The notes beneath the pieces are model-generated. The model was not told the DNA's origin, ran no database searches, and worked only from the letters and a program-made list of their open reading frames with translations. 64,000 nt of DNA from a virus: IMG/VR virus record IMGVR_UViG_3300045988_165047. One strand, written 5' to 3'. The stretch's first letter is position 1, and every line of letters starts with the position of its first letter. Made by a program: the position numbers and the translations under genes. Positions 68 to 52,436 of the stretch are shown in pieces.

Positions 68-89
68 CAGCTCTGCGTCAATGACTTGT

Positions 90-425: not shown

Positions 426-426
426 A

Positions 427-3574: not shown

Positions 3575-3858
3575 TGTCGTATGATTTCTTTTAAGTAGAT
3601 GGTGTCCCCTCCCACACTAACAGCGGTGGATAGTGCTTTTAGCAGGACCTCCATCACGAGGGTTTTTTCAGTAGATGATGATGGCCTTTGAATGTTGTTG
3701 CACCCAAAGGCGTAATGTGGTGTAGTGACCTTTGCGAACATCCTCCAGCAGGTGTCTTGCTTAACACCCCTAACGGATATGCCTATGGTAGCGTTGCTCC
3801 TTTCAAAGAGGAACTCCCCAGCACCCAAGGTGTTGAGGAGTACCACTACGTCCATCAT
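3562..3858 (-). CDS. hypothetical protein
   Basis: 98-aa ORF whose start overlaps the folE stop by 4 nt. No motif. Confidence 0.5.
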   Translation of the reverse strand: MMDVVVLLNTLGAGEFLFERSNATIGISVRGVKQDTCWRMFAKVTTPHYAFGCNNIQRPSSSTEKTLVMEVLLKALSTAVSVGGDTIYLKEIIRQWSQ

Positions 3859-4523
3859 ATTTTGATAGCTTGTAAGAACTCAGCCCTAAGAGGTCCATTA
3901 AAGAATACCCCACCGAGCTTAGAGGTTAGTGTATCACCGCCCTCGTCTTCCTTACCTCTGAAACTAACACAGAAATGTTCCGCCTTGATGACAACGGCAA
4001 CATTCTCAGTCTCTAAGAGATAACTAAGCGTGTGGTAAATCTGCTCTACTAAGCGTTCTTGTACCTGGGGTCTTCGGCAAAAGAACTCCACAACCCTATT
4101 AAGTTTAGAGAGTCCAATTACCTTCCCCTCGGGAATGTACGCTACATAAGCCTGACCACGAATGGGCATCCAATGATGCTCACACATAGACTTCACACTG
4201 ATGCCTCTCTCAAGTACCATACTACCATACTCCATAGAGTTACCGATGGTCATAATCTTGGGGAAGTTTTTGTAGTCCAATCCCCAAAATAATTCAGAGT
4301 GATACATCTTAGCCAATCGGCGAGGTGTCTCCATAAGAGACTCATCTGTTAGGTCCAGACCAAGATTATGGTGCAGTAGGCTGAACAGCTTTTCAGTGTC
4401 TTCTCGTAGAGTATCCTCCTCCTTAATAAGGCGCACCATAGGTGTCTCCACTCCCATAGACTTTAAGTGTTCGTGAACCTCTCTACCTAATGCAAGGTCG
4501 GTTTTGTTTTTGTCTAATGCCAT
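3855..4523 (-). CDS. folE: GTP cyclohydrolase I (FolE)
   Basis: 222 aa. 'CEHHWMPIRGQAYVAYIPEGKVIGLSKLNRVVEFFCRRPQVQERL' matches the FolE active-site block CEHH...VAYIP...GLSK...RPQxQERL nearly residue for residue. Confidence 0.9.
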   Translation of the reverse strand: MALDKNKTDLALGREVHEHLKSMGVETPMVRLIKEEDTLREDTEKLFSLLHHNLGLDLTDESLMETPRRLAKMYHSELFWGLDYKNFPKIMTIGNSMEYGSMVLERGISVKSMCEHHWMPIRGQAYVAYIPEGKVIGLSKLNRVVEFFCRRPQVQERLVEQIYHTLSYLLETENVAVVIKAEHFCVSFRGKEDEGGDTLTSKLGGVFFNGPLRAEFLQAIKI

Positions 4524-7304: not shown

Positions 7305-10300
7305 TATAAGAAATCTGTTATGTTAATGAACTCCTGTACACTCTTCACCTCACGGATTTCTCCAGTGAACATAGGTCTTACCGCTTGTTCGGTGTTGGAG
7401 CTTTCTAGGATTTCAAACCATATTAAGCCTTTATCGTGGTGTCTATGTCCTATATAAATAGGAGAATCTGTATCTCCAACGCTCCAAATCTTGGAACCTG
7501 TGGTATAGAACGTAGAATTAGAACCACCTGAGAATTGATATGGTGTAAGACCTATGATGTCCATGTACTTTTCGTGTCTAACTCTAAGTATGTTGGTCTC
7601 GTGGTTACGAACAAACCTCCATAAAGTGGTTTCTCCATTCTCTCTGCGAGCCTTGAAAATGGGGGCATCGCCATTCATGGACACCGAACTTCCTGTAAGA
7701 GCACCCCACCAGCCAGAGTCGAAGTACTCGTACCCCATCGTCTTTAGGGCTTGCTGACCTACCCATTCTCGGGATATACCACTAACCTTCCAGAAACCCC
7801 AATCTCCTGATGTACCATTCTTACGGACGTTATCTGACATACCACTTTCAAGGCATCTTCCCATAAAGTGTGCCCAATTACTCTCGCTCGTAAGTGACCC
7901 ATGGTCCCAGCTCGTTATTGAACCGTCCCTCACATACTTCAAGTTTACTATATTCTTGTACTCCTCATAGGATATTATTTCCATACCCCTACTCGTCATA
8001 AGTGTCTCAAAGCTCTCCCTGTTTCTACCCGTAACGTGTCTATTAGACTGAATAAAATCCTTGAGAACTCCCGAGCCTATCTTCCCATTGACAGAGCATA
8101 GTTTGAAAGCCCCTACAAGTTTCGCCTTATGGCGAACCCAATCAGTCTCTACATCTACTATATTACTCGTATTAGACACTACGGCGTATATGTCGGGAGA
8201 AGTCGCCCTAGGTGCCTGATTAGGTATGGAGAAGTAACACCATTCTGCCCCATCTGGGATGTCAAGTACTACATACATTCCCTCTTCAAAGTACGAAGAA
8301 TTGGTAGAAGGGGAGTAGGACTCTACAACCCCCCCATCTTCTCTTACTATGATTACACCTTCAGCGTTGCCAGATGTTGGAACCCTTACCTTCTTACCTC
8401 CTCGTACTTTAACCCTATAAGCTACTCTTGACGTGTCTTGAACTATGGAGTTTTTAGTAGTGCTTCCGGCCACTACCTTTTGGTTCACAAGCTCATTACC
8501 GCTACTACGAAGTTCTTCAAGAGTGAATTTAGTCGCATCTGGAGCGTCTGGTTTTACCCCGTACGCATAGCAGAAGTACTTCTTCATACTCTTTACGTCA
8601 TTTACCCCCTTGTACCAATACTCTGGCTCATATATCATCAGGTCTCCCTGTGAAAGGTCTACCGCCGCATCGGTACAATTACTCTGTATCTCGTTGTCGT
8701 CATACTTCAAGAAGGTATCTTTTCTAAGACGGCAGATACTCATAACCCCCTTAGACTTTCGCTCCTGCTTAGCTAAACAAGGGAAGCGAGCGTTAAGGAT
8801 AGCCGCAATATGCGCAGAGGGCTTATAGGCATTACCGAACTTATACCCCGTCTTGTTGTCAAGGTTGGAGAGCTTAGCTGGAGTTGCCACCGCATCGTCA
8901 AGCTCAACAACTGTGTACTGAGGCTGACGAATGTTAAGCTCATCAAAGCGTTCTCTGTACTTCTCAAACACAGCTTCGTCAAGGTACTTAGTGAGCTGGT
9001 AATTACCTAGGAGCTTACACTTAGAAACGTTCTCCGTTCCATCAGCGTTGATACCTCCAAGACCCTTAGCATACCAAGCCTCAAGTTCAGACCCGTCACC
9101 CGTAATAGAGCCGATATTGATACGGACATACTTCAAGGAGTTATTACCCGAAAGTATTTCCTTGAGGAGGTCCGTCCCCGATAGCTTGGGGCAATTTTCA
9201 ACTCTAAGACCAACAAGGCGACTAACGTCCCCAAATACAATACCCGCTCTCGTGATGTTTGGTAACGACACAAGAGACAGAGTCTGGTAGTTATTAGGGA
9301 GTTTCACCACCTTGACAGCGGAACTTTCTCCAAAGAGAATAGACGAAAGAGAGTTACACCCACGTGCATCAACCTCTTCAAGTCTAGAGCACCCTGTTAA
9401 GCTAAGTGAAGGAAGGTTCTCATACCCATTAAGAGCGAGCTTTCTGAGCATAGGCAGGTTATCTCTAATGGCGAACTCTGTCAGACCATAGGACTTTCCT
9501 TCCTTACCCATAATCAGTTCCTCAAGAACGGGCATATTGGGGATGTCCAAATTCGTGAAGCCACCCCAATCAGAGAGGTCAAGTTTCGTTATCCACTGCC
9601 CACCATATAGATGGAAGATGGTACCGATATTAGCCACCTGAGTGTAGCGGTACACGAACTCTTCTCCCTTCTGTACCTTCTTATGAACCATAGAGGTTCC
9701 CTCTCTCTTGAACTCAAGATAGAAGTCTCTACCCGTTACGGCACGAATAGTAGCACCTGCTTCGGAGTTACCCTTCCAAGCGATGTCCGTTGCAGTGTAC
9801 TGACCCGTAGCCGCCCAAGCATCAAACAGAGCCATTCGGTTATAGATGAACCACTCTCTGTGCGACTTTCTGTTCCCCTGCATACTTTCAAGGTAGGAGT
9901 ACGTCTGCGTAGTAACTCTCCCGTCACGGATAACAGAGACACCCTTAGTCTTGGGGTCAATGTACTTTCTAAGAGAGTCCACATTGAATACTCGCTCACA
10001 GAAACGCTCACTCTGTTCGTCATTAAACATACGAAGGATGTCCGCATTAGAGAGTTTTGCTCTGATACGGAGATATGCCTTCTTGATTTCATCGGGGAAC
10101 TGCTCACGCAGGTTCTTCCACAGAACACTATCGTGCCCAGCGAAAGCATAGACGGTCTTTCCTCCTACGGACAGCTCTGTGTCAATAGTCTCCTCGTTAA
10201 TGTCCCAATGATAACGAAGTCTCCCGTCATTTCGGACACCTAGGATAGTATCGTTATCATAGAAAATCATATAGGCGAGTACCTTGTCACGCTTAGGCTC

Positions 10301-13300
10301 GTAGAAGAAACTCATCATCATATTCTTCACACGCTGGTCACAGCAAGCGAACATATCCGTGAACACATAGTAGTCACAGAGGTAGTCTATATCAAAGTAG
10401 TCACCAAGCTCTCTCTTAAACTTAGTTTTTCTCTGAGTAATTGCACTTGCAGAAAGCCCACTAGCGAGAGTGTCCGTAGAGTGTACCCACTTGACAAGAG
10501 GCTCAAGATACTTAGGTTTCAGCGTCCCATCAGCATACTTAGCGTTTATCCCCTTGTCATCGGGGAAGCGTGCTTCAAACACCTTCATCCAATTAGGAGT
10601 ACCATCAGATGCCTTAGCGTCAAAGTCAGAGTCCTTAAAGCTACCCATTGGGTAGTCGTTATTAAGGAACTCCCAACATTCAGTAGGGTTCTTACCGCCA
10701 AACTTAGTCGTTACCCAAGTAGCATCGTGGTATCCAGGAATACCTAAGAACCCGAAGACATCCTCGGTGCTCTTGTCGTTGTTAAAGTTGAACTTCCCTA
10801 GGAACTTAGGAGTCTCATCTACTGAACCACGATAGAAGAGCAAGCAAGGCTCTCCGTCCACGGTGGTACGCACATCCTTATCGTAGCGTTTTCTATCTAC
10901 GTGCTTCTGAGGAGGAGTAAGTTCCCCTGCCTTAATGAGAGTGTTGTGGACAAGGCGAGCCATCCCCGTATTATGGGAGCTGGAGCTTTCAGCAAAGTCC
11001 GCTTTAAGACAGAAGCAATTTACGTCTGCACCAGCAGGCATACCATCCTTAGCAATTCGGAACGTCCACTTACCACTTTCTCTGAGAGTACCACCTGCAC
11101 CATTCTCATCACAACCTACAAACAACTGCCCCAACTTTTTCTCCTTAGAGCTATCGTAGGTGTAGATGCGGTAGTTCTTAGTGGGGTAAGCAAGAGACGA
11201 AGTTCCTTGAAGAGCTATACTCCCACCAATAAGACGGAAGTTCTGTTCGGGGACACCACCCTTCACAAAGGTGAAAATCTCAGATACGTCAAACTTCGTC
11301 TTCTTGTTATTATTCACTGCCGCATAAAGAGCGGTAGGCATCCCACTTGAGTGAGTGCCTGTAATGATTACAACACGAAGTCCAGCAGGAGCACTTTCAA
11401 CGCTAATGTCCCCTTCGGAGTTAAGGACATCATTCTGCTTGTACTCTGCGATAAGGTCGTCCACCTTGGGCTGACCAAGAATGTACAAGGAGAGTACCTG
11501 GTCATCAGTTAGGAACGTATTGTACGCTCTAATAGAATTAACATCTATCGTAGCCTTCGTTGAACCTATCTTAATAGGCATAGGAGTGGCTTGATAGACA
11601 CTATCAGTAGGACCTCTCTGCACCCCTGCGCACATTACCCCATTGATATAGAGGTAAACCATTTCAGAGTTATTCTTCTCGTACTCTGAAGACTCTGACT
11701 TACTTTGTGGGAACGACACAAACGTAACCTCGTAGGGAACGTCTGAAGCCATCTTCATAGCGAGTTTGCTATTACCGCTCGTGATTAGCCTAGCTTCACT
11801 AGGAGTGATTTCAAACCCCGTTCCTCTAGAGTCTACGCAAGACACAACTACTGCATCGTGGTCTACTACCTCACTACACTTGTATCTGATAGAGAACGCA
11901 AACGCATTAGTTGTTGGGAGTACCTGCTGAAGAGGCTTGTAGTTTACTACTGATATAGCGTCCCCCTTGTGACGGAGTGCTCCGTTAATCCAACCATCAC
12001 CACCAAAGTTGAAGCCTCTAAAGTCAGTAGTTACTCCGTTGTACGTCCAAGAGTCTCTCTTAACATCAGAGTTGCTTCTACCTTGTGCGGATAAGTGTAG
12101 CTTCAAACCATCGGTGGGTTCCGTAAGGTTAAGGTCCGTCTTACCTACCTGTAAGGTATAGGTGTACGTGGTATCGCCACAAGCAATTTTGCAGGAGCGT
12201 TCCCCTTCCCTATTACTACGTAACTGAAGCTCATTGTCCACGAAGGAAACCTTAGCAGAAGCAACTACCTCGTCACCCTCATATACCGCAACAGCCGTTG
12301 GAGTCTCAAGAGGGTTGTACACAGCATAGCTTAACGTATAGGTGTCAAACTGCTTAGTGACCAATTCAGGTCTCTGTCCAGCGGTGTAAACTCTCCCGTC
12401 CGCATAGTCAAAACGGGTACAAACAATAGGTCTGTTAATACCCTTAGTGACTACGGCTACATCAAAGTAGATGCTGTTTGACTTAATAGTCCCACCGCCT
12501 AGAACTTCAAGCTCCGCAACTAATTGTACAGAGTTAGAGCCGTGAGACATTCTGCTTGTGTCAATCGTAAACGCCCCGTTAGCCGAGGATGCGGTAATAG
12601 TTCTGTCTTCGGTGGGTGCGCCATTGACGTAGCAACGAAGAACCTTACTACCACTACCCGACAAAGCATAGGGAATGGACAAGGACTGACCTCTCTCCGT
12701 GAGAGTGGAGATAGAGTATGAGCTGGTAAGTTTCAGCTGAATTACATTCACCGTCCACGAAGCCGAAGCAACCTGTCTATCACTACCCGAGCCAACCTCT
12801 AAGCGCACTCGGATATTATTAGCACCGACACCCACAAACTTAGTAGCGTCAATCTTCTGTGTGCTCCCAGCAGGTACGTTTGATTCAAAAGAGTACGAAG
12901 TAGCCCCTCTAGTAATAGTTACGACAGCCTTAGCAGGGTTACCCGTAGTGTCCTTGGTCTCCGTATTGATTTGGTCATAGGAGTAGACAAGTGCAACCTC
13001 ATCCCCAGCCTTTACATTAAGGTTGGGAGTTACACGAGTAAGGACAATCTTGGTTGCACTTTGAGAACCTCCACCGCCACCTGTGATGGGACCTTCGGTA
13101 GAGATTTCTTCCCCAAGCATATTGTTCACTACAATTCGGTAGACCTTATCAGCGCCTTCCCCTTCTTCCTCAACCTTGATACCACCAACGGCTTCCTTCT
13201 TGAGCTGTTGGATAGCGGAATGAACCGCCCCACTCTGAACCGCATTGGTAGAGTTAGGAGTTACACTATTCTCCACAGCAACCTCGGGGATAGAGATAGT

Positions 13301-14905
13301 AACCTCACCGCTAGCGTTTGGAAGTTTCTTCTCAGCAGGTCTAGTACCTACATTAAAGCTGATAGAGCGCACAGCACCCTTAGCACCATACTTTTCCCAA
13401 GAGCTTTCTACGAAGAAGCTAGTAAGAGAAGTACCTGCGAAGCGATAATCTTCCCATACACCACTCTTAGTTTCAAAGGTTATGATTGCGCCCTTCTTTC
13501 TGTCATCGGGGTACTCGGCATCCTGCATAGCTTGGAGAGCTGTCGCTAAGGTGTAGAAACCGCTACCAAGAGGAATTTCCGTGGTGACGTTATAGAAACC
13601 GCTACCACTACCATCCCCCGAACCACCCTTAGACGCACCAAGGAGGTCAAGATGGGACCCGTTAAAAGCATAGAACTCTTGCCCTACTTGATAGAGTACT
13701 CCCTTTTTAGGTGAAGCAACAGAAGTAGAACCTGTCTCCATCGTGACGACCTCAGAGACTTTACCGCCTGCGTTCTTTCGGAGATACACACCATCAGACG
13801 AAGGAGGAACACCTGCCTCAAGCACCGACTTACACCCTATGATAGGAGCGGTCTTACTCTTGAGTGCCTCCATAGAGGTTAGTCTCTCATCAAGAGCGGT
13901 AAGAAGTTCCTTCGTGTTTTTGCCCACAAGGGTGAACACCCCAACAGAGTTAAACACATAGAGGTCCTCACCCATCCCATAGATAGCTTCTCTATTGGGG
14001 CGGTTGTTGTCCATATAGAAGAGGGCAGTGTCCCACTTAGCGTAGTAGTTACTATCCTTTTTAGCCGCAAATGCGTCAAGGTCTTTTAGGTAAACTACTA
14101 AGTGCCCCGAGGGAGCTTCACTCTGTAAGATATTGGGGTACCCTCCCTCTAGAGCGGAGAAGGTATTAAACACTCTCTTGGAGGTAGTAGCAAGAAGCGA
14201 AGAGGTCTTTCCAAGAGTTTTAGTCGTCTCTTCGTGTCCCTTAGTTACGTCCTCTAAGCCCTTCTTAACCTTCTTAATCTCCTCACCCTGCCCAGACTTT
14301 AAGGTATCTACTGCCTGTGTTACTTGGTCAGTCAGTTCTCTAAGAGCTGTCGTAACAGCCGCCTGAGACATTACCGAGGACGTAGATGTTCCCTTCGTCT
14401 GAGAGATTGTAATGTTAGAAGCCGCAACGGGAATTTCCTTATGTGACCAATAAGTAGCCCCAGCTTCTCGGTACATAATGATGAGAGCCGAAGCATCCGT
14501 AATGGTTATAGGCCTACCATCAACCCCGATGAAGTTCTTATAGGTCCCAGCACCTGCCGCAAGAAGAGTTACAGATTTATTGCTGGGGAAATTTGGTTCG
14601 TAATTAACGTCCGTAGCAAACCCCGATACACCACCTGATACAGAGTTCACGTAGCGTACCATATTAGCGACCTCTCGGTCAATCTTATCCATCAGAGCGA
14701 TATTGTTATCTCTCTGAGTATCTCTAACCTGTTGTGCGAGAGTAGTGGCGTTATCCACATTGGTGGAACTCTCAGTAAGAGCTTCCCACAATTTCAACAG
14801 CCCCTTGTCCCCCTTAATAATGGCGAAGAGCATTTCATTGATTTTCGTCCTCGCCTCTAATCCAGAGTCTCCCTGCTGTATTCTCTTTATATCTTGTATA
14901 TCCAT
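7304..14905 (-). CDS. giant multidomain protein (fibre-like N-terminus, Ig-like repeats, LamG-like, CotH-like and LRR blocks); probably virion/host-interaction
   Basis: Uninterrupted ORF of more than 2,500 codons. The track start (14944) is a TTG inside a terminator hairpin, so the first ATG at 14903-14905 ('MDIQDIKRIQQG') is preferred. Recognisable blocks: 'NAVQSGAVHSAIQQLK' (fibre-like); a LamG/ConA-like region at about 11480-12110; a CotH-like region at about 9900-11050 ('KNMMMSFFYEPKRDKVLAYMIFYDNDTILG'); and leucine-rich repeats at about 9100-9600 ('LPMLRKLALNGYENLPSLSLTGCSRLEEVDARGCNSLSSI'). Confidence 0.85.
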   Translation of the reverse strand: MDIQDIKRIQQGDSGLEARTKINEMLFAIIKGDKGLLKLWEALTESSTNVDNATTLAQQVRDTQRDNNIALMDKIDREVANMVRYVNSVSGGVSGFATDVNYEPNFPSNKSVTLLAAGAGTYKNFIGVDGRPITITDASALIIMYREAGATYWSHKEIPVAASNITISQTKGTSTSSVMSQAAVTTALRELTDQVTQAVDTLKSGQGEEIKKVKKGLEDVTKGHEETTKTLGKTSSLLATTSKRVFNTFSALEGGYPNILQSEAPSGHLVVYLKDLDAFAAKKDSNYYAKWDTALFYMDNNRPNREAIYGMGEDLYVFNSVGVFTLVGKNTKELLTALDERLTSMEALKSKTAPIIGCKSVLEAGVPPSSDGVYLRKNAGGKVSEVVTMETGSTSVASPKKGVLYQVGQEFYAFNGSHLDLLGASKGGSGDGSGSGFYNVTTEIPLGSGFYTLATALQAMQDAEYPDDRKKGAIITFETKSGVWEDYRFAGTSLTSFFVESSWEKYGAKGAVRSISFNVGTRPAEKKLPNASGEVTISIPEVAVENSVTPNSTNAVQSGAVHSAIQQLKKEAVGGIKVEEEGEGADKVYRIVVNNMLGEEISTEGPITGGGGGSQSATKIVLTRVTPNLNVKAGDEVALVYSYDQINTETKDTTGNPAKAVVTITRGATSYSFESNVPAGSTQKIDATKFVGVGANNIRVRLEVGSGSDRQVASASWTVNVIQLKLTSSYSISTLTERGQSLSIPYALSGSGSKVLRCYVNGAPTEDRTITASSANGAFTIDTSRMSHGSNSVQLVAELEVLGGGTIKSNSIYFDVAVVTKGINRPIVCTRFDYADGRVYTAGQRPELVTKQFDTYTLSYAVYNPLETPTAVAVYEGDEVVASAKVSFVDNELQLRSNREGERSCKIACGDTTYTYTLQVGKTDLNLTEPTDGLKLHLSAQGRSNSDVKRDSWTYNGVTTDFRGFNFGGDGWINGALRHKGDAISVVNYKPLQQVLPTTNAFAFSIRYKCSEVVDHDAVVVSCVDSRGTGFEITPSEARLITSGNSKLAMKMASDVPYEVTFVSFPQSKSESSEYEKNNSEMVYLYINGVMCAGVQRGPTDSVYQATPMPIKIGSTKATIDVNSIRAYNTFLTDDQVLSLYILGQPKVDDLIAEYKQNDVLNSEGDISVESAPAGLRVVIITGTHSSGMPTALYAAVNNNKKTKFDVSEIFTFVKGGVPEQNFRLIGGSIALQGTSSLAYPTKNYRIYTYDSSKEKKLGQLFVGCDENGAGGTLRESGKWTFRIAKDGMPAGADVNCFCLKADFAESSSSHNTGMARLVHNTLIKAGELTPPQKHVDRKRYDKDVRTTVDGEPCLLFYRGSVDETPKFLGKFNFNNDKSTEDVFGFLGIPGYHDATWVTTKFGGKNPTECWEFLNNDYPMGSFKDSDFDAKASDGTPNWMKVFEARFPDDKGINAKYADGTLKPKYLEPLVKWVHSTDTLASGLSASAITQRKTKFKRELGDYFDIDYLCDYYVFTDMFACCDQRVKNMMMSFFYEPKRDKVLAYMIFYDNDTILGVRNDGRLRYHWDINEETIDTELSVGGKTVYAFAGHDSVLWKNLREQFPDEIKKAYLRIRAKLSNADILRMFNDEQSERFCERVFNVDSLRKYIDPKTKGVSVIRDGRVTTQTYSYLESMQGNRKSHREWFIYNRMALFDAWAATGQYTATDIAWKGNSEAGATIRAVTGRDFYLEFKREGTSMVHKKVQKGEEFVYRYTQVANIGTIFHLYGGQWITKLDLSDWGGFTNLDIPNMPVLEELIMGKEGKSYGLTEFAIRDNLPMLRKLALNGYENLPSLSLTGCSRLEEVDARGCNSLSSILFGESSAVKVVKLPNNYQTLSLVSLPNITRAGIVFGDVSRLVGLRVENCPKLSGTDLLKEILSGNNSLKYVRINIGSITGDGSELEAWYAKGLGGINADGTENVSKCKLLGNYQLTKYLDEAVFEKYRERFDELNIRQPQYTVVELDDAVATPAKLSNLDNKTGYKFGNAYKPSAHIAAILNARFPCLAKQERKSKGVMSICRLRKDTFLKYDDNEIQSNCTDAAVDLSQGDLMIYEPEYWYKGVNDVKSMKKYFCYAYGVKPDAPDATKFTLEELRSSGNELVNQKVVAGSTTKNSIVQDTSRVAYRVKVRGGKKVRVPTSGNAEGVIIVREDGGVVESYSPSTNSSYFEEGMYVVLDIPDGAEWCYFSIPNQAPRATSPDIYAVVSNTSNIVDVETDWVRHKAKLVGAFKLCSVNGKIGSGVLKDFIQSNRHVTGRNRESFETLMTSRGMEIISYEEYKNIVNLKYVRDGSITSWDHGSLTSESNWAHFMGRCLESGMSDNVRKNGTSGDWGFWKVSGISREWVGQQALKTMGYEYFDSGWWGALTGSSVSMNGDAPIFKARRENGETTLWRFVRNHETNILRVRHEKYMDIIGLTPYQFSGGSNSTFYTTGSKIWSVGDTDSPIYIGHRHHDKGLIWFEILESSNTEQAVRPMFTGEIREVKSVQEFINITDFL

Positions 14906-14920
14906 ATTCTCAAAACAAAT

Positions 14921-14954
14921 AAAGGGCAACCTACATTTCTGCAAGTTACCCTTT
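14921..14954 (-). terminator. rho-independent-type hairpin after the 73-aa gene
   Basis: On the minus strand, AAAGGGTAAC-(14 nt)-GTTGCCCTTT forms a 10-bp stem (one G:U) followed by ATTTGTTTTG. It sits between the stop at 14972 and the ATG at 14905. Confidence 0.55.
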
Positions 14955-15280: not shown

Positions 15281-16006
15281 TTATAATTCCCGTGGGACAA
15301 CTAGTTTAGTAGCTTCCTCCTTGTACTTATCATACATAACCGCCATCTTATGCGTCTGCATGTTTAAGTACGCCTTAATCCCGAGGGAAGAGAGAACCTC
15401 ATCAGTGTGCATATATTGCATAAGAGCTTGGTAGGTAATTGCGGACCCCCAAAATACCCCAACGGCAAGATTAGTCTTGCTGTATTTAAGGTAGCTTTCT
15501 GCAAACTCCTTAAGGCTAGTTAAGTCGTCTTCGTCATCTACCACAACTTTCACGAAGTCGTCCTCATTAAGCAGGTGGTAGTTGTTGTATTTCATTCGTA
15601 GGTTCTCCCCCGTGCTGGGAAGTTTGTAGTCTACGATGAATGATACATTACGGAAGTGTCTGTAAGGGAGAATATCCACACAACCACTAGTCTCAATGGC
15701 TACGTGATACCCCTTAAGAGTAGCGATTCTAAGGAACTCGGAAACATCTTGGAGTAGCGGTTCCCCTCCTGTAAGACAGATAAGGTTATACCCATAAGAG
15801 TCTACTGACTCTAGAATATCCCACTCATCCATTGGGTGTCCGCTTTTACCTTCAAGTGCTTCGGGTGTATCACACAGAATACCCTTAGTTTTTAGGTAGC
15901 ACCGAAGAGGGCACTTACTAAGTCTAACGAACACACAAGGCGCTCCAATCCCGAACTTGTTTACCTCGCCCATAAAGGCTGGGTAGATAGTTTGTACGTT
16001 TAGCAT
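15281..16006 (-). CDS. queE: 7-carboxy-7-deazaguanine synthase (QueE-like radical SAM enzyme)
   Basis: 241 aa. 'FVRLSKCPLRCYLKTKGILCDTPE' aligns with QueE 'F(I/V)R..GC...C..CDT'. The 'LTGGEPLLQ' SAM motif is present, and the C-terminal 'LNMQTHKMAV' matches E. coli QueE 'MQTHKYLNIA'. Confidence 0.85.
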   Translation of the reverse strand: MLNVQTIYPAFMGEVNKFGIGAPCVFVRLSKCPLRCYLKTKGILCDTPEALEGKSGHPMDEWDILESVDSYGYNLICLTGGEPLLQDVSEFLRIATLKGYHVAIETSGCVDILPYRHFRNVSFIVDYKLPSTGENLRMKYNNYHLLNEDDFVKVVVDDEDDLTSLKEFAESYLKYSKTNLAVGVFWGSAITYQALMQYMHTDEVLSSLGIKAYLNMQTHKMAVMYDKYKEEATKLVVPREL

Positions 16007-16434
16007 ACGGCTCTATATTGTTCTCTTGTTAAGTACTTCTTGAAGTTAAGAACTCTACTCTTATACACTCCCAAGAAGCACTTAACAGCTGTAATAGTAG
16101 AGTTATTATCCCCCTTCTTTAAGAGGGAGATTAGGTTCTGTTGTCTTCCGTCTATGTCGGTGGTGTCTAGGTATGCAACGATTTTACTACGTAGTCGCCC
16201 GAGGGAGAAGGCTCCCCTAATGGCTGGGTAGAAAACCTGCTTTCTGTAATAAGACATAACCTCAGCGAGTACAACAACTGCGTCCTTCTCTGATAAGCTA
16301 CGTGCTCTAGTACAGATTGTGTCAATGGCTTCTCTTTCTGTCTGGAGAGTTTCATTAGCGGAACCCTCAATGACGTATTTTCCTGACTTGAACTCAACAC
16401 AAGTTCCAACCAAATGTTTGGCTAAGTTATTCAT
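16000..16434 (-). CDS. hypothetical protein embedded in the deazaguanine island
   Basis: 144-aa ORF that overlaps the queE start by 7 nt and the upstream stop by 4 nt (ATGA). No confident motif. Confidence 0.6.
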   Translation of the reverse strand: MNNLAKHLVGTCVEFKSGKYVIEGSANETLQTEREAIDTICTRARSLSEKDAVVVLAEVMSYYRKQVFYPAIRGAFSLGRLRSKIVAYLDTTDIDGRQQNLISLLKKGDNNSTITAVKCFLGVYKSRVLNFKKYLTREQYRAVC

Positions 16435-17159
16435 CGTTTCTCTTTTATTGGTTCTTTCACCTCTTCAAAGTCAGCGATTTCTGCTGAGCCTTCAAGAGAC
16501 TTACTTCGTTCTGGTAATTCTGTTACCGATGGTTGGGGTAAGGAAGAAGGTCCTCCTCCGAAGAGTTTCGCTAAGATGCCTCCACCTCCCGAACTTGCAG
16601 AACCTTCTGCCTCTACACTAATACTAAGACGCTCTCTTGAGAGATTAGCCTTAGCCGCTGTTAGTCCGTTTAGGCGGTCCATTTCACTTGAGAGGTTAGC
16701 ATCTGGAACACCACCATCTAGTTTTTCGTGTAGTGACGCACGCTGAACTCTTGTGTACTGCATCTTGATGAGGTAGTCCATCATATCCTGCGGAGAGGTC
16801 GGATAACCTTCCTCCCAATCAATAGAGCAAGCACTACCTTCTTCGTAGAATGGACACTTATCTGCCACATAACAGCTGTCGCAAGACATCCCTCCAGATA
16901 TACTCTCAAGAGAAACCTTATCTCGTTTTTTCGGCAGGGGAGCCGCTTCAAAGGAGGGTTCCCATACGTCCATAGGTTTCTTAAGGATGGCAGAAAGGTA
17001 ATCCATCTTACACTCCTCAAAGTCATCCTCTTGTCGTAAGCAAGTTAAACACCTGGGGGCTGACCCTTTCTCATAAAAGGGGCAGAGGTGTTTGGACAAC
17101 TTCTCTGGAGTGTCCGCTTCAGTAATGCTTCTAATCCTTTTTAGGATGCTTTCTTTCAT
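16431..17159 (-). CDS. Cys-rich protein with a duplicated CPFYE(K/E)GSA..C motif
   Basis: 242 aa with two four-Cys clusters: C26-x10-C37-x2-C40-x9-C50 and C93-x2-C96-x5-C102-x8-C111. It also has a Gly/Ser-rich linker and an acidic tail. Confidence 0.6.
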   Translation of the reverse strand: MKESILKRIRSITEADTPEKLSKHLCPFYEKGSAPRCLTCLRQEDDFEECKMDYLSAILKKPMDVWEPSFEAAPLPKKRDKVSLESISGGMSCDSCYVADKCPFYEEGSACSIDWEEGYPTSPQDMMDYLIKMQYTRVQRASLHEKLDGGVPDANLSSEMDRLNGLTAAKANLSRERLSISVEAEGSASSGGGGILAKLFGGGPSSLPQPSVTELPERSKSLEGSAEIADFEEVKEPIKEKR

Positions 17160-18132
17160 ATCTACTTACGTACTTGTTCTTGAGTTTCAGGTTTGCCATC
17201 TTTATGAACTCCTTTCGGAATCCGAGCCACCCCGTCAAGTTCATATTATTGACAGCGTATCGGTCTTCTTTCTTACCGATTACTCCTTCATAATCAACTC
17301 CTGCCGCAATAAGTTTCACTTTACGCTGTTTACGGATGCGCTCCTTCTTCTTGTAATCTAAGGTACGGAAATTCTTCCCATCGTAGTCGTAGGTAGTACC
17401 ATAACGAGTACCACCAAGCCACGTTGTGGAGTCCACCGAAAAGAATGGGTATCTCTTACACAACTCAAATGCTGTCCAAGCAAATCCGTGTATTCGTGTC
17501 CCGTACTTATTCGCAATGGTGGCTACTTTATGAGCGTACTCTTTGTCACGTTGGTTTACTCCTACGTACTTATACCGCTTACAATAGTACTCTAGGTTGG
17601 TAAACTTCAAGTCGTCATTAGTTCTATGTGCAACATAGACTATTTGCAACCCTTCGGCTTCAAGAGGTTCAAAGTATTTCTTATTCCACTTTCGTACTAT
17701 CTCCTCCCCAACCACTTTATCAAGGTCAAGGTTAGCGGCTACGAATATGTACTCCTTGTGTTTGCGCAACCAAGCTACATACTCCTCAAGGTAAGGTAGC
17801 CAAAACTCTTCCGATGTGAGTTTATCGTACTCGGGGTGGTCCTCATGAAACTGACCCATAAAGGAGAACGCTCCAGAGTCCGTCATAAAGATACCATCCT
17901 GTTCGTACACCTCTTTAAGTAACTCCTCAAAAGAGCGAAGAGACTTTCTCAGATAGTGGTAAGATACGAGGATTTCTTTTATGCCGAAGCGTCTAAGAGT
18001 TCTAGCGTCCTCAATAGAAGAAGCAGAGAAAAACACAACCGCTTTACTCCGCCTCTTATCGTATTCTAAATTCTTAGGTATCAAGGAGAGTCTGCATTTC
18101 GTTAGTGAATACCTCAGTAGAAATAGTCCCAT
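17131..18132 (-). CDS. dpdA: DpdA-like DNA (7-deazaguanine) transglycosylase, TGT superfamily
   Basis: 333 aa. 'IFMTDSGAFSFMGQ' resembles the TGT catalytic 'TDSGGFQ' block. There is a second 'FFSVDSTTW' Asp block. The gene lies between queE and the queC-like gene. Confidence 0.65.
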   Translation of the reverse strand: MGLFLLRYSLTKCRLSLIPKNLEYDKRRSKAVVFFSASSIEDARTLRRFGIKEILVSYHYLRKSLRSFEELLKEVYEQDGIFMTDSGAFSFMGQFHEDHPEYDKLTSEEFWLPYLEEYVAWLRKHKEYIFVAANLDLDKVVGEEIVRKWNKKYFEPLEAEGLQIVYVAHRTNDDLKFTNLEYYCKRYKYVGVNQRDKEYAHKVATIANKYGTRIHGFAWTAFELCKRYPFFSVDSTTWLGGTRYGTTYDYDGKNFRTLDYKKKERIRKQRKVKLIAAGVDYEGVIGKKEDRYAVNNMNLTGWLGFRKEFIKMANLKLKNKYVSRYERKHPKKD

Positions 18133-18793
18133 CAGAGATTTCTAAGAACTCTGCTAACCATTCCTTACCAGCAATTCTAGGGTCCTCGTCAAATAGCTTA
18201 GGGTCAAACATCCCGTTTACTGCGAGTGCGATGGCTTTCTGTACACACGATTTGCACTTCCCACACCCCTTAATACTATGTGCGTCATAGCATGTTCTTA
18301 GAGTTGGGATATGTGATACGTCTATGTCTCTTGAGATTGCTTCTGCGAGCATTTCCCCCTTAGTGTAGTCACGATAAGGAGTTAGGACCTTTGGGTGTAC
18401 ACTATCCCACGTGTCGGGAATATCTCTAAAGTAGTAGTAGTTCTGAATGAACGAAGTTAGTCCATTAAGAACATCCTCCTGCTTATCATAGTGCAGGTCA
18501 TAGTGTGTCACTCCCAACAATACCTCATTAGAGAACTCAAAGGCTCTAAGTAGGTAAAAGATATTTCTCATAGGAACAATAGCATTAGCCTGTTCCAGAG
18601 ATTTGAAATTGAGAGTGTGGTCCACTATAATGGAGTGTCCATTAAGAAGACCCATACCTTTGAACTTTTCAAGTTGCTCAAGCTCTCTCTGTTCATAGCG
18701 TGCGCCCGATGCGAACATTAAGAGAGTATCTGGGGCTTCCAAGAGCCTATATAATTCAGAGTCCAACCCCGTGGAGTATAGTAGTACGCTCAT
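18074..18793 (-). CDS. queC: QueC-family protein (7-cyano-7-deazaguanine synthase-like)
   Basis: 239 aa. The N-terminal PP-loop variant is 'LLYSTGLDS' (canonical SGGxDS). 'VPMRNIFYL' aligns with QueC 'VPGRNILFL', and 'TCYDAHSIKGCGKCKSCVQKA' with the QueC zinc motif 'TCY...GCGxCxxC'. Confidence 0.8.
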   Translation of the reverse strand: MSVLLYSTGLDSELYRLLEAPDTLLMFASGARYEQRELEQLEKFKGMGLLNGHSIIVDHTLNFKSLEQANAIVPMRNIFYLLRAFEFSNEVLLGVTHYDLHYDKQEDVLNGLTSFIQNYYYFRDIPDTWDSVHPKVLTPYRDYTKGEMLAEAISRDIDVSHIPTLRTCYDAHSIKGCGKCKSCVQKAIALAVNGMFDPKLFDEDPRIAGKEWLAEFLEISDGTISTEVFTNEMQTLLDT

Positions 18794-18817
18794 ATTATTG
18801 TTTCCTATTTACGCAGA

Positions 18818-18841
18818 GAGGGTGGCTTTTACACCACCCTC
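18818..18841 (-). terminator. hairpin after the 40-aa peptide gene
   Basis: GAGGGTGG-(8 nt)-CCACCCTC forms a perfect 8-bp stem, 25 nt downstream of the stop at 18867 and before the queC start. Confidence 0.5.
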
Positions 18842-18866
18842 CCTAAAATAACACATCCTGTTAGGT

Positions 18867-18989
18867 TTAGCTATTAGAGCCCGTGCCCTTAGCCTTAGCG
18901 CCCTTAGCACCCTTACCTGCTGCCTTCTTAGAGGTCTTAGCAGGCTTGGTAGCCTTCTTAGGAGCGGCTGCCTTGATCTTCTTAGCCAT
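18867..18989 (-). CDS. 40-aa Lys/Ala-rich basic peptide (below the ORF-track length cutoff)
   Basis: I translated it by hand: MAKKIKAAAPKKATKPAKTSKKAAGKGAKGAKAKGTGSNS*. It has its own TATCTTTG box upstream and a hairpin downstream. Its composition is histone-H1/HU-tail-like. Confidence 0.5.
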   Translation of the reverse strand: MAKKIKAAAPKKATKPAKTSKKAAGKGAKGAKAKGTGSNS

Positions 18990-19078: not shown

Positions 19079-19351
19079 TTAGCAACCTCGGACAATAATT
19101 TTCAGCACCACCGCTGTAATCCCGTCAGCATCCGTAAATGATGGTCTAACATCAGATACAAGACCCTTCTTTGAAAAGTAGGTGTTACTAATAATCACTC
19201 CCTTGATTGCCTGATTGAGCGCCCCAGCCCCTACAACTCTAAGATGGATTACCCTATCGGGGTCCTCTTGGTAAATAGAATAAATGCTGGCACCCAACTT
19301 ATTGGGGTCGGTAGACGACTTACACCGAATTTCCTTGTGAACTACGTCCAT
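19079..19351 (-). CDS. SpoVS-like protein
   Basis: 90 aa. 'LRVVGAGALNQAIKGVIISNTYF' aligns with B. subtilis SpoVS 'IQAIGAGALNQAVKAIAIARGF', and 'PSFTD...ITAVVLKIIV' with 'PAFTD...RTAIKLIV'. Confidence 0.8.
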   Translation of the reverse strand: MDVVHKEIRCKSSTDPNKLGASIYSIYQEDPDRVIHLRVVGAGALNQAIKGVIISNTYFSKKGLVSDVRPSFTDADGITAVVLKIIVRGC

Positions 19352-22227: not shown

Positions 22228-22794
22228 TTACTTATAGTGGTCTACACTCCGATACTTTACTAACCGCTCTTTGTAGTGGTCAGTGCTATCATAACCACAG
22301 CATTTTTCCTCGGGGCAAAAGCCTCGGTAAATACACTCTGGTACGCACTTCTCAGCGAGGATGGGGTCTTGTTTACCTATCTCCTTGACTACCATTTTCC
22401 ACGTCTTTCGTGTTTCCTTAGAAGAGAGGTAGCAAAGTCTCTTACGAGATATGTTAATGAGAGCTTGAGCATTGCAGGTCATTTCCATATCGTTCAGACT
22501 TCCTTGTGGGAGTTCGTCTCTCGGAACTTCAAGAGTAGTTCTATCCTCTCTCTGAGTGCGGACAAACTTCTCTACTCCGATATGGTGACGAACAAGATGT
22601 ACCGACACCCATTGACGAATATCCTCAATAGAAATGTCGTACTCTATCAAACGTATGGGGCTATGTTCGGATAGGAGCATTCGTGCCCTCCATCGGTCAC
22701 TTGGTTCCTTCCCAATATCACCCTTTCCGACCGTCTTACGAGCCATACGTAAGGCACGTCTCCAAGGTGTTACCTGCTCAACACTAACTTTCAT
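22228..22794 (-). CDS. divergent ThyX-like (flavin-dependent thymidylate synthase fold) protein
   Basis: 188 aa. 'SEHSPIRLIEYDISIEDIRQWVSVHLVRHHIGVEKFVRTQRE' parallels ThyX 'gHeSplEh..ftF.i.gvSR....ql.RHR(x)7S'. The signature, however, reads RHH(x)7R. Confidence 0.6.
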   Translation of the reverse strand: MKVSVEQVTPWRRALRMARKTVGKGDIGKEPSDRWRARMLLSEHSPIRLIEYDISIEDIRQWVSVHLVRHHIGVEKFVRTQREDRTTLEVPRDELPQGSLNDMEMTCNAQALINISRKRLCYLSSKETRKTWKMVVKEIGKQDPILAEKCVPECIYRGFCPEEKCCGYDSTDHYKERLVKYRSVDHYK

Positions 22795-23146
22795 ATTCTT
22801 CTTTTATGATTTCTTTCAGAACTGCTTCCACTCTCCACCACATACGATGTACTACAAAGCGGATAACAGAGGTTTGCTTCTCGGAGAAGTTATTCTGCGT
22901 AGTAAATTCCTCCACTACGTCATAGAGTTCTTTACGTACTGATAACCCTTTAGTGAGTTGCTCTCCGAGTTGGGCGTAATGTACTGCCTTCTCAAGGTCA
23001 ATTCTACCGCCCTTGTTCTTGTACCGACTTACATACTTGACTATGCTCCCTTGCACAAAGTCAAGGTTAGTCTCGGTTATGAACTTTATAGGTTCGTAGG
23101 GGAGCTTATAGTGGCTTCCCCCAACTTGTTTATCTAAAGCGCTCAT
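22784..23146 (-). CDS. DUF3310-family phage protein
   Basis: 'KQVGGSHYKLPYEPIKFI...GSIVKYVSRYKNKGGRIDLEKAVHYAQL' matches the DUF3310 pattern QVGG.HY...KY..R...K....DL.KA. Confidence 0.7.
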   Translation of the reverse strand: MSALDKQVGGSHYKLPYEPIKFITETNLDFVQGSIVKYVSRYKNKGGRIDLEKAVHYAQLGEQLTKGLSVRKELYDVVEEFTTQNNFSEKQTSVIRFVVHRMWWRVEAVLKEIIKEEYES

Positions 23147-24274: not shown

Positions 24275-24390
24275 AAGATTTCTAAGCTAGTATTTAGGTA
24301 GGGTGGTTGGAGTTGCACCAACACAGCCTATTGGCACCCACTTTAAGTAGGCTCGCTTACTACGTGCGCCACACCCTACACATTAGGCAA

Positions 24391-24455
24391 CCCCATAGAG
24401 GACTTGAACCTCAATCTTTCCCGTCGGACTGCTCTAGCCATTGAGCTAATGGGGG
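24391..24455 (-). pseudogene. truncated tRNA-like element (canonical D and T arms, no foldable anticodon arm)
   Basis: The minus strand reads CCCCCAT-TA-GCTC-AATGGCTA-GAGC-A-GTCCGACGGGAAAGATT-GAGG-TTCAAGT-CCTC-T-ATGGGG. The acceptor, D and T arms are recognisable. The central 17 nt cannot form a 5-bp stem with a 7-nt loop, and the whole element is only about 65 nt. Confidence 0.3.
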
Positions 24456-24619
24456 TAACGTAGGTACTTAGGAATTTGTTCGGTAACCTACTTGGTTGAG
24501 TATTAAAGTGACCCGAGTACTAACATATAGCTAATACAATCTCAACACCGACTATCTACTTAACCCTCCTATGGGTCGTAGACCAGCAACCTTTAATAGG
24601 AATTATGTTGCATATTTTG

Positions 24620-24692
24620 TCACCTCAGCAGGACTTGAACCTGCGACCCACGGGTTAAAAGCCCGTTGCTCTACCGACTGAGCTATAAGGTG
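24620..24692 (-). tRNA. tRNA-Lys (anticodon UUU)
   Basis: Hand-folded cloverleaf: CACCTTA/TGAGGTG acceptor, GCTC-AGTCGGTA-GAGC D arm, ACGGG-CTTTTAA-CCCGT anticodon arm, GGGTC variable loop, GCAGG-TTCAAGT-CCTGC T arm and discriminator A. Total 73 nt. Confidence 0.9.
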
Positions 24693-24790
24693 AAGTGGTG
24701 GTTTGAATTTTGACCCAACTCCTCCCAACCACCAAAGAGGAAGGTCCTACCAACTTAGCTTGATAGTGCTTGGCGACTGACAACCGCTCG

Positions 24791-24864
24791 TTTAGGAGGT
24801 GGGACTCGAACCCACGACCGATAGCTTAGAAGGCTATTGCTCTATCCAACTGAGCTACTCCTAA
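24791..24864 (-). tRNA. tRNA-Arg (anticodon UCU)
   Basis: Hand-folded cloverleaf: TTAGGAG/CTCCTAA acceptor, GCTC-AGTTGGATA-GAGC D arm, ATAGC-CTTCTAA-GCTAT anticodon arm, CGGTC variable loop, GTGGG-TTCGAGT-CCCAC T arm and discriminator A. Total 74 nt. Confidence 0.9.
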
Positions 24865-25028: not shown

Positions 25029-26837
25029 TTAGGAAATTCTTACCGAAGCGTTATCAACCACAGCCTTTTTAATTATCCTTCCGAGGTCTATCGCAAGCGT
25101 AGACATATTCTCTAGGATAACATAATGCTTGAACATCTTAGCTGGGTCGTAAACGTGGTTAATACAAACCTGAATAACGCTAAAGTTCATCTTCTCCACA
25201 AGAGAGACCTTATTACGAACGTCTCTTACAGCTTCGTCCCCACCATAACCTCCAGCGCAAGGAGCACCATCTGAGATTACGAACATTATTACGGGGGTCT
25301 TAGTCATAGAGCGTACTCGCTTTGCAGTCTCATATATGGCAGTTCCGTCTCTATTCTGATAACGTTCACGAGAAGTTCCCAAAGAGTACTTAGGGCGATA
25401 GCGTCCCTCTCGGTAGATGAATATCTCTGTTGTTCTATCACGTAAATCGTCTCCCGAGTGCCCATAGATGAATAACTCAACTTGTGGAACACCTCCTACG
25501 GCTTCATTGATTAGCACAGCAGTATCTCGTGCACTTTGTATTCTACTACCACACATAGAACCACTCTCGTCAATAAGAACGCAGATGGCTATCTTGTCGG
25601 TTTTCACCTCGCCCTCTCTGATGTAGACACTAGGAACTCCTTGTACCGCCTCAGCGAGTTTGTTAGTATCAAGAACACCGCTTCGCATAGACCTATGTAT
25701 CAGCTTATACTCTTTGCAGTGTCCCTTGATTACTTTAGCTATGGCAGGAATATACCTTTTCACTCTATCAAGAGAGACTAGATAAGTGGAGGCATCTTCG
25801 GGAGCCTTAATGAACACAACGTCCTTTGTAGTCTCCTCCATAGTCCCCTCAATGATGTGAGAGGAAACCGCATCACGAAGTGCCCCACACTTATCAACGT
25901 CCTTAGAGGACTTAGTGGGCTTAATCTCTCGTAAGATTTCACGGAAGGTTTCTTCGGACGCATCCATATCCTCCGACATACGTTCCTCCGCACGGGCGAT
26001 TTCTTCTTCGGTGGGTTCTCCTTCTCCCGAAGCACCACCACTCTTCTCCCTTTCATCCTCAATGTAGAGGTCACGAATAATCTCAAAGATGTCTCTTGCC
26101 AATTCAAGGCAGTCATCATTATTCGTGGGGTAAGGTAACGTTACCTCCTTAATCCGCACCATATAGTCATAGAACTCTATGATGTCCTTTTCCTCTATGT
26201 ACTTTGGATAACGGATAATCTTTAGTAGGAGATTTACCGCCTTTTCGTAGAGGTTCAACTCTCTCTTCATTGACTCCAGAGTGTCTATGTAAACGTGGTC
26301 AAACACGTAGTACTTAACCTTCTCTAGGAAGTTTGCGAGACCTGGTTTTTCCTCTCCGATTAGTCGCTCAATTCGTTCATCTTCTACGATGTTCCAAATC
26401 GTGTGGATAGGTTTAGGAAGAGTACCTAAAGAGGAGAGGTCTGTGTAAAGTAGATGTGCCGCTTCGTGTACCGCAATACCAATAAACACGTCTACCTTTT
26501 CTCCCAAGGATAACTCTGGTTCGTCAAACACCTTAGTGGAGCAATGTAGTAGCTTCCCGTCAGTATAGCTATCAGAAGAGGAGGACACCTTAATAGATAC
26601 CTTAAAAGGAATGTCCATACTGATGACAGTCTCACTCGCTAATGAGTAGGCACGTTTGAGAACGTCCATTTCACTAAGCGTGGTATCTAAGAAGTAAGAG
26701 GAGTAAGAAGTACCCTCTAGGCGTTCCTCCCAACCAAGTCTTCCAGTAGTTCTCTTATGAACGTAGGTCTCACCATCTCGGTCAAACCAATCGTCCATAA
26801 GAGCGTCTACCATTTCATCGGTGATTATCTTGCTCAT
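25029..26837 (-). CDS. VWA-domain protein, CobT-like, with an N-terminal HExxH region
   Basis: 602 aa with a MIDAS motif 'VLIDESGSM', and upstream 'AVHEAAHLLYT' and 'WNIVEDERIERL'. It is coupled by a 4-nt overlap to the AAA+ gene. Confidence 0.85.
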   Translation of the reverse strand: MSKIITDEMVDALMDDWFDRDGETYVHKRTTGRLGWEERLEGTSYSSYFLDTTLSEMDVLKRAYSLASETVISMDIPFKVSIKVSSSSDSYTDGKLLHCSTKVFDEPELSLGEKVDVFIGIAVHEAAHLLYTDLSSLGTLPKPIHTIWNIVEDERIERLIGEEKPGLANFLEKVKYYVFDHVYIDTLESMKRELNLYEKAVNLLLKIIRYPKYIEEKDIIEFYDYMVRIKEVTLPYPTNNDDCLELARDIFEIIRDLYIEDEREKSGGASGEGEPTEEEIARAEERMSEDMDASEETFREILREIKPTKSSKDVDKCGALRDAVSSHIIEGTMEETTKDVVFIKAPEDASTYLVSLDRVKRYIPAIAKVIKGHCKEYKLIHRSMRSGVLDTNKLAEAVQGVPSVYIREGEVKTDKIAICVLIDESGSMCGSRIQSARDTAVLINEAVGGVPQVELFIYGHSGDDLRDRTTEIFIYREGRYRPKYSLGTSRERYQNRDGTAIYETAKRVRSMTKTPVIMFVISDGAPCAGGYGGDEAVRDVRNKVSLVEKMNFSVIQVCINHVYDPAKMFKHYVILENMSTLAIDLGRIIKKAVVDNASVRIS

Positions 26838-52433: not shown

Positions 52434-52436
52434 AGT

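Follow-up and report, generated by a model that had tools for sequence, protein, structure and literature searches.

Predicted 7-deazaguanine DNA-modification genes with a two-cistron DpdA in a gut Bacteroides-type phage

We analysed a 64,000-nucleotide stretch of viral DNA (IMG/VR record IMGVR_UViG_3300045988_165047; hereafter the window), in which positions 15281-18793 hold a five-gene minus-strand island of putative 7-deazaguanine DNA-modification genes. In gene order, these are a divergent QueC homolog (18074..18793), DpdA-N, the predicted catalytic TIM-barrel part of a DpdA-type transglycosylase (17131..18132), DpdA-C, a stand-alone Cys-rich module (16431..17159), unk144, an all-helical protein of 144 amino acids (16000..16434), and QueE, a radical-SAM 7-carboxy-7-deazaguanine synthase (15281..16006). 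The five genes overlap or abut one another (junctions of 59, 29, 4 and 7 nt) and therefore form one operon. Moreover, the order Rus-like, SpoVS-like, QueC-like, DpdA-N, DpdA-C, (variable), unk144, QueE and a 73-amino-acid open reading frame (ORF) is found in 24 related loci, and is thus not a product of chance. A gene for FolE, also on the minus strand, lies 11 kb from the island (3855..4523). A previous sequence-only reading had recognised QueE, a TGT-superfamily protein with the motif TDSGAF, a QueC-family protein with the motif GCGKCKSC, and FolE at these positions, and had deduced from them a phage 7-deazaguanine DNA-modification island around a DpdA-type transglycosylase. The four assignments are borne out by the profile and homology searches reported below, and the overall deduction holds, with DNA as the presumed substrate.

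All long ORFs of the window lie on the minus strand, and its genes are those of a contractile-tailed phage, including a contractile injection system (CIS) tube, a T4-type baseplate, a capsid, a family A DNA polymerase, DnaB/primase, RecA, a ligase and an amidase. The phage is a gut phage of Bacteroides type. Its nearest cultured relative is Bacteroides phage BS162P1 (OP172706), whose DpdA-N shows ~56% amino-acid identity. From metagenomes come an IMG/VR contig of 75,973 bp with ~96% DNA identity to the window, and an ENA contig (L037) that is 100% identical across window positions 1-2590. A megablast search of the island against GenBank phages gave no match.

The base preQ0 (7-cyano-7-deazaguanine) is made from GTP through dihydroneopterin triphosphate (H2NTP, by FolE), 6-carboxy-tetrahydropterin (CPH4, by QueD) and 7-carboxy-7-deazaguanine (CDG, by QueE), which QueC converts to preQ0. 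For the first of these steps, the FolE of the window exceeds the curated equivalog cut-offs of NCBIfam NF006824 (260.7 bits, cut-off 202) and TIGR00063 (205.2 bits, cut-off 181.6), matches Pfam GTP_cyclohydroI (PF01227) with E 2.4e-54, and has copies 57-62% identical in BS162P1 and in the related loci L017 and L020. QueE matches TIGR03963 (E 3.4e-32), TIGR04349 (E 4.6e-31) and phrog_2076 (E 1.3e-27), with scores under the equivalog cut-offs (111.9 against 260.1 for TIGR03963). Its cluster motif CX3CX8C (C32, C36 and C45; CPLRCYLKTKGILC; window 15872-15913) is found throughout the window's phage group. When aligned with the QueE of phages BCD7 and CAjan, which have CX3CX2C (alignment A6), the three Cys and a GGEP motif are invariant, and a 6-residue insert lies between the second and third Cys.

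The sequence-only reading had found no recognisable QueD, and had proposed that the host supplies this step, that the gene lies outside the window, or that an unrecognised ORF substitutes for it. As far as the window is concerned the absence stands: neither Pfam scans of the ORFs, nor a six-frame search for the motifs CxxxH[GRAS]H and HGH, nor tblastn with the QueD of E. coli and of phage BCD7 detected either a QueD or a substitute. The Pfam scans of the window, here and below, were run on the called minus-strand ORFs other than the 2,546-amino-acid ORF at 7304-14944 and the pair at 50151-52739, joined into strings. As for the phage, the absence does not stand. Contig L037 encodes at 10581-11108 a QueD of 175 amino acids (PF01242, PTPS, 110.7 bits, E 5.5e-32; motif CYNLHGH), located 7.99-8.52 kb beyond window position 1, that is ~8 kb outside the window, and followed by two basic proteins and the terminase. 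Given the complete identity of the two sequences over 2,590 bp, we take the window phage to encode this QueD. The gene is likewise present in BS162P1, with motif CFNLHGH and immediately upstream of the large terminase, and in the ~96%-identical IMG/VR contig, at its extreme end and ~7.5 kb left of the match to window position 1. In the close relative L029 we searched for QueD upstream of the terminase, at the site syntenic with BS162P1; it is not there, as the contig is broken at this point, and QueD is found at the contig's other end. Of the three explanations, a gene outside the window is therefore the one that applies, and neither host supply nor a substitute ORF is needed.

In agreement with the sequence-only reading, Pfam shows no QueF, ArcS, Gat-QueC or methyl- or formyl-transferase, and no amidotransferase either, in the scanned window ORFs or in the adjoining 10 kb outside window position 1, where the sole Pfam families are a type IB topoisomerase and PTPS. 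As the window terminates inside the portal gene, the unseen parts of the ~77-kb genome comprise only the terminase and the portal N-terminus. Judging from its genes, the phage is predicted to encode all four steps to preQ0, and no downstream tailoring enzyme is recognisable. Together with DpdA, this is the same set (FolE, QueD, QueE, QueC and DpdA) as in DpdA1-type phages such as CAjan, Iggy and BCD7, from which the window phage differs by having its genes spread over three loci (QueD by the terminase, FolE, and the island), by a much more divergent QueC, and by a group-specific 144-amino-acid protein in the operon. The topoisomerase (PF01028; L037 7088-7855, ~4.5-5.3 kb beyond position 1 and outside the window) is also annotated in BS162P1, as top1E. 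Type IB topoisomerases are uncommon in phages.

The QueC homolog scores 39.8 bits with the Pfam QueC model (cut-off 22). A family profile made from this protein and its relatives aligns over its full length with the canonical QueC structures of Pectobacterium (2PG3, E 4.2e-14) and B. subtilis (3BL5, E 5.9e-11), and the protein shares with them the zinc motif CX8CX2CX2C (C168, C177, C180 and C183), the [Y/M]RN motif, and the Asp residues D99 and D103 (alignment A4). Unlike canonical QueC, it carries a C-terminal extension of ~40 amino acids, has the PP-loop STGLDS rather than SGGxDS, and falls far under the NCBIfam equivalog TIGR00364 (26.8 bits, cut-off 150.3). In QueC of the BS162P1 type the PP-loop is SGG[LF]DS, and the two types, which are ~30% identical, alternate among syntenic relatives. 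Comparison of the window with locus L003 also reveals a mosaic break at 18577-18943, where QueC is 64% identical amid flanking genes that are 97-100% identical, and where the 5' part of QueC and the upstream spacer are unalignable at the DNA level. Such a pattern suggests rapid turnover of QueC.

These features raise the question of whether the same machinery might yield a base other than preQ0, such as dADG, dCDG or an undescribed derivative, either through a QueC that releases 7-amido-7-deazaguanine (ADG) or through a DpdA that inserts CDG or ADG. The low equivalog score, the altered PP-loop, and the alternation and apparent turnover of QueC all speak for it, as does the fact that ADG is a known intermediate of the QueC reaction. 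Moreover, there is precedent for both dADG and dCDG in phage and viral DNA (PMC10516641). Against it stand the conserved zinc Cys motif, [Y/M]RN motif, D99 and D103 of the QueC homolog and its end-to-end alignment with QueC structures, as well as the phages that combine FolE, QueD, QueE, QueC and DpdA with no further enzyme (CAjan, Iggy and Rosebush), which have so far been found to carry dPreQ0 (PMC8306585). We regard a final base other than preQ0 as unlikely, albeit the main alternative, and the divergence of QueC makes dADG in particular possible. As there is no QueF, ArcS, Gat, DpdL, DpdM or DpdN-type gene, the inserted base is most likely preQ0, which would give phage DNA containing dPreQ0.

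DpdA-N is predicted to be the enzyme that carries out the insertion. In a tblastn search of 50,697 GenBank phage records, it matches the DpdA of BCD7 (E 6e-33), the DpdAs of Mycobacterium phages (E 1e-11), and those of Iggy (E 3e-4) and CAjan (E 5e-4), and it aligns with positions 7-270 of the 509 of phrog_887, annotated as 'queuine tRNA-ribosyltransferase' (E 5.2e-34). The BCD7 protein has been classed as a DpdA in the supplementary data of Hutinet 2019, and experiments are reported to show that dPreQ0 in DNA requires the DpdAs of CAjan and Iggy (PMC7544227, PMC10484667). More than 230 clusters (at 90% identity) of DpdA-N proteins of ~310 amino acids exist. The true start is probably not the ATG at 18132 but a site 15-25 codons further downstream, as alignments with homologs begin at residue ~17-24 and the model has pLDDT <50 for residues 1-15.

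The putative active site is well conserved. D85-S86-G87 (in TDSGAF) and H215 are invariant among the window phage, BS162P1, L017, BCD7, BRock, CAjan and Iggy (alignment A5), and D234 (in FFSVDSTTW) is kept in six of these seven, the exception being BRock; DpdA-N thus has in common with the DpdAs of CAjan, Iggy and BCD7 the Asp of the DSG motif, the conserved His and the Asp of a DSxxW motif. Across 33 family members the catalytic residues (DSG Asp, His and nucleophile Asp) are invariant. In role, D85, H215 and D234 match Asp95, His181 and Asp256 of the Salmonella DpdA, as established there by mutagenesis (PMC10164549), and for Asp130 of that enzyme the DpdA-N alignment offers no confident equivalent. 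In seven relatives (L018-L024; GenBank MT835482) an intein with a LAGLIDADG domain sits directly after D234-S235 (FFSSDS / TTWLGG), a position which indicates that the site is functionally critical and supports its assignment to the active centre. In L018 it spans 10658-11914, is in frame, measures ~420 amino acids and matches Intein_splicing (84.5 bits) and LAGLIDADG_3 (39.2 bits). We also considered that this 1.26-kb insertion in the DpdA-N of relatives might be a group I intron, for which Rfam gave no match. The DpdA-N gene of the window is intein-free.

The AF2 model of DpdA-N is a (beta/alpha)8 TIM barrel (pLDDT 87.3, pTM 0.86). Foldseek searches of BFVD retrieve predicted models of phage DpdAs (E 1e-18 to 1e-3), including 'queuine tRNA-ribosyltransferases' of Arthrobacter and Microbacterium phages, as well as the DpdA2 of Vibrio phage nt-1 (R9TGF0, E 3.8e-5) and the DpdA3 of Cellulophaga phage phiST (M4SLA5, E 1.1e-3). 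Likeness to DpdA2, to DpdA3 (which also occurs in Campylobacter phages) and to DpdA4 of archaeal viruses is far weaker than to DpdA1-like proteins. Moreover, DpdA-N retains the conserved His that is missing in DpdA2 (PMC6884629), and, unlike DpdA3 phages with dDG, which have a DpdL variant (LxxxHRHxF), the window phage combines a true QueD (CxxxHGH) with a QueC homolog. On grounds of homology and active site, DpdA-N is predicted to be a DpdA1-like phage DpdA with an atypical architecture.

Since TGT-superfamily enzymes classically act on tRNA, and both PHROG and GenBank name the homologs 'queuine tRNA-ribosyltransferase', these could instead be auxiliary metabolic genes that supply queuosine or preQ0 to host or phage tRNA, with the TGT-like protein acting on tRNA. 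The phage does carry tRNA genes, in a cluster at window 24297-24864 where ARAGORN names three, Leu(TAA), Lys(TTT) and Arg(TCT). With Rfam the Leu gene goes unlisted, and a fourth, weak match resembling a tRNA appears at 24389-24455. However, of the three ARAGORN tRNAs none has the GUN anticodon of a queuosine substrate, the nearest characterised homologs, the DpdAs of CAjan and Iggy, act on DNA, the Pfam TGT model does not match DpdA-N, and no QueF, QueA or QueG/H that would complete queuosine was detected by Pfam in the scanned window ORFs or the 10 kb beyond the window start. A role in tRNA modification is in our view highly improbable.

More improbable still is that the QueC-like protein and its TGT-like partner serve to attach a deazaguanine to a protein, possibly for counter-defence, in the manner of Cap9/Cap10 in type IV CBASS or of QatC in Qat. 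The QueC-family profile does give weak matches to Cap9 (9NTO, E 1e-3) and QatC (E 0.012; NCBIfam QatC, E 3.6e-4), but those to true QueC are at least ten orders of magnitude better and extend over the full length, and the presence of the whole set of FolE, QueD and QueE in a lytic myophage fits the pattern of DNA modification. Pfam scans of the window ORFs showed no CD-NTase or other defence genes (PADLOC was not run).

We turn back to the DpdA-type transglycosylase and to its second part. Of the two island genes that had been left as unknowns, the one at 16000-16434 stays without a match, while that at 16431-17159 is the C-terminal domain of a DpdA encoded as a separate protein. DpdA-C aligns with positions 363-478 of the 509 of phrog_887 (E 7.4e-19), the same PHROG as DpdA-N, and is in turn matched in tblastn by fused DpdAs that hold both parts in one protein, namely gp36 of Streptomyces phage BRock (500 amino acids; residues 357-485, E 7e-15) and gp21 of Bacillus phage BCD7 (757 amino acids; residues 601-696, E 5e-6). 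The Cys-rich module is thus a separate cistron in the window phage, unlike in BCD7 and BRock, where it is fused, and unlike in CAjan and Iggy, whose DpdAs (306 and 312 amino acids) lack it entirely. Relatives of DpdA-C form 575 clusters among the 1.84 billion representative proteins searched. In the ~80 top-scoring clusters the protein stands alone, measures 240-280 amino acids and aligns over its whole length, and most weaker matches are C-termini of proteins of 450-520 amino acids that align only to residues ~89-210. The shared core has an invariant CX2CX5CX8C motif (C93, C96, C102 and C111), E..DGG..D.NLS, and a GGILAxLFG tail (alignment A7), and a second Cys4 motif (C26, C37, C40 and C50) is found only in the stand-alone forms. 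Sequence and profile searches of DpdA-C against the PDB gave no meaningful match.

DpdA-N and DpdA-C are separate cistrons in all 14 genomes compared (the window and 13 related loci), down to ~45-55% amino-acid identity, each time with an ATG of its own for DpdA-C. At the junction the two ORFs overlap by up to 29 nt or lie up to 49 nt apart, with a frame offset of +1 or +2. On the strength of this comparison we reject a programmed frameshift or a sequencing error joining the two. That the split marks a decayed gene, through a frameshift pseudogene or an assembly error, as the 29-nt overlap of ORFs in different frames might suggest, deserves hardly any credence and is effectively refuted by conservation: besides the recurrent layout with its varying junction and both frame offsets, there are the ~80 stand-alone DpdA-C clusters and >230 clusters of ~310-amino-acid DpdA-N, the invariant catalytic residues, and inteins that stay in frame.

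The tail of DpdA-C, GGILAKLFG in the window (16560-16586, residues ~192-200), has an invariant Phe, recurs in the fused proteins of BRock and BCD7 (in the latter as GGILSRLF), and looks like a short linear motif for docking. The dpdA genes of CAjan and Iggy adjoin sliding-clamp and polymerase genes. A role of this tail in tethering to the clamp or the replisome is pure speculation.

unk144 has no match in Pfam, PHROG or NCBIfam, and holds its place between DpdA-C and QueE in almost every related locus. Among 5.8 billion proteins searched by profile, no more than 16 clusters contain it, and it is restricted to the window's phage group. Its AF2 model has eight helices (pLDDT 82), and neither a fold match (best E 1.7) nor a sequence match was found in the PDB. 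As a candidate replacement for QueD it was rejected, because it is all-helical, contains one His only, lacks a T-fold, and belongs to a genome with a true QueD.

Taken together, we consider it probable that this phage modifies its DNA with a 7-deazaguanine through its own pathway and a two-protein DpdA. FolE, QueD, QueE and the divergent QueC would turn GTP into a 7-deazaguanine base, and the two-subunit DpdA would exchange it, after replication, for guanine in double-stranded phage DNA, which would thereby be protected against host restriction. DpdA-N would act like TGT and bacterial DpdA, with D234 attacking C1' and displacing guanine, D85 of the DSG motif serving as general acid/base when the deazaguanine enters, and H215 helping to read the base. 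DpdA-C would bind DpdA-N and supply in trans the role of the fused C-terminal domain of BCD7/BRock-type DpdAs, probably as a metal-stabilised DNA-binding or targeting module, and unk144 probably has an accessory function within this operon. That DNA is the substrate, that DpdA-N and DpdA-C form a complex, which base is the final one, and that the modification counters restriction are points that we infer.

The predicted TIM-barrel chemistry, with an acid/base Asp and a nucleophile Asp and the replacement of G by preQ0 in DNA, is shared with the DpdA/DpdB/DpdC system of Salmonella Montevideo (PMC10164549). Unlike in the Salmonella Dpd system, no ParB-like ATPase DpdB, no DpdC and none of the restriction genes dpdD-K were recognised, and Pfam detects no ATPase motifs in DpdA-C or unk144.

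Several observations weigh against the proposed DNA modification. The test of whether the 17131..18132 product folds as a TGT/DpdA TIM barrel came out in part only: the model is a TIM barrel resembling predicted phage DpdAs, but Foldseek against the PDB retrieved generic TIM barrels (TM 0.3-0.45), with neither TGT nor the Salmonella DpdA in the top 50, and neither sequence nor profile comparison of DpdA-N with PDB entries gave a meaningful match. Its link to TGT hence passes only through intermediate phage DpdAs. DpdA-N further differs from TGT and bacterial DpdA in that the barrel has no CXCX2CX22H zinc site, and no Cys follows strand 8; the CX2CX5CX8C of the separate DpdA-C is a motif of another kind. 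The sub-equivalog score and the PP-loop of the QueC homolog point in the same direction, and unk144 is missing from one relative (L008), so that it may be dispensable or unrelated. Finally, modification of the virion DNA is predicted here from genes, and the association of DpdA-N with DpdA-C is a proposal.

A bolder form of the proposal, which we find decidedly unlikely, is that DpdA-N, DpdA-C and unk144 make up a multi-subunit DNA transglycosylase whose targeting or extent of replacement is unlike that of DpdA1-4, and which, with the atypical QueC, would give rise to an undescribed derivative or pattern in widespread human-gut Bacteroides phages.

Concerning the neighbourhood of the island, a SpoVS-like gene (window 19079-19351; Pfam SpoVS, 38.5 bits) lies directly upstream of it in all relatives. 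This recalls BCD7, where a 'sporulation protein' gene is found a few genes away from the QueD-QueE-QueC-FolE-DpdA cluster. Within the operon, many relatives have after DpdA-C a very basic ORF of ~105 amino acids (…FWKHDDYPNAPK…LLTRRIRKINR…; for example L001 10741-11061, with equivalents in L006, L008, L010, L012, L014 and L018) that is not in the window. In L005 a MazG gene (Pfam, 42.6 bits) separates unk144 from QueE, and L020 has an N6/N4 DNA methylase (29.7 bits) after DpdA-C. The 2,546-amino-acid ORF that separates FolE from the island is presumed to encode a tail fibre or host-recognition protein, and has no detectable homolog in BS162P1 (best tblastn E 0.92).

Further away, window positions 25029-28057 encode a CobT-like VWA protein (602 amino acids) paired with a CobS/MoxR-like AAA+ protein (407 amino acids; AAA_5, CbbQ_C). 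A partial ThyX (Thy1) match, limited to the C-terminal end of the model (135-190/191), is found beside a DUF3310 protein at 22228-22794 and 22784-23146. The large terminase has 907 amino acids in BS162P1 (L027 9334-12057) against 558 in a close relative of the window (L029 726-2402); residues ~215-545 of the BS162P1 protein have no tblastn counterpart and are probably another intein or insertion.

Phage 7-deazaguanine DNA modification as a type of system is already known (PMC6884629, PMC10516641). Our full-text literature searches retrieved no paper on such modification in Bacteroides or gut phages, and no relevant paper on BS162P1 or on a split DpdA. The obligate division of DpdA into two subunits (a barrel and a Cys4 protein), the operon's orphan partner, and the occurrence of the system in a large group of gut Bacteroides phages thus appear undescribed in the literature searched.

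7-Deazaguanine modification of DNA is an established anti-restriction strategy of phages, and the group considered here is abundant in metagenomes, as judged from its >230 clusters of the barrel subunit. Thanks to the cultured member BS162P1, the prediction is directly testable. An obligate two-gene DpdA represents a natural dissection of the long DpdAs, and offers a means to probe what the Cys-rich module does, for instance in targeting, in binding to DNA or in a dependence on metal. Were gut phages to carry modified DNA, this would also bear on sequencing bias in virome studies, on restriction-based cloning, and on the phage-host range in Bacteroides.

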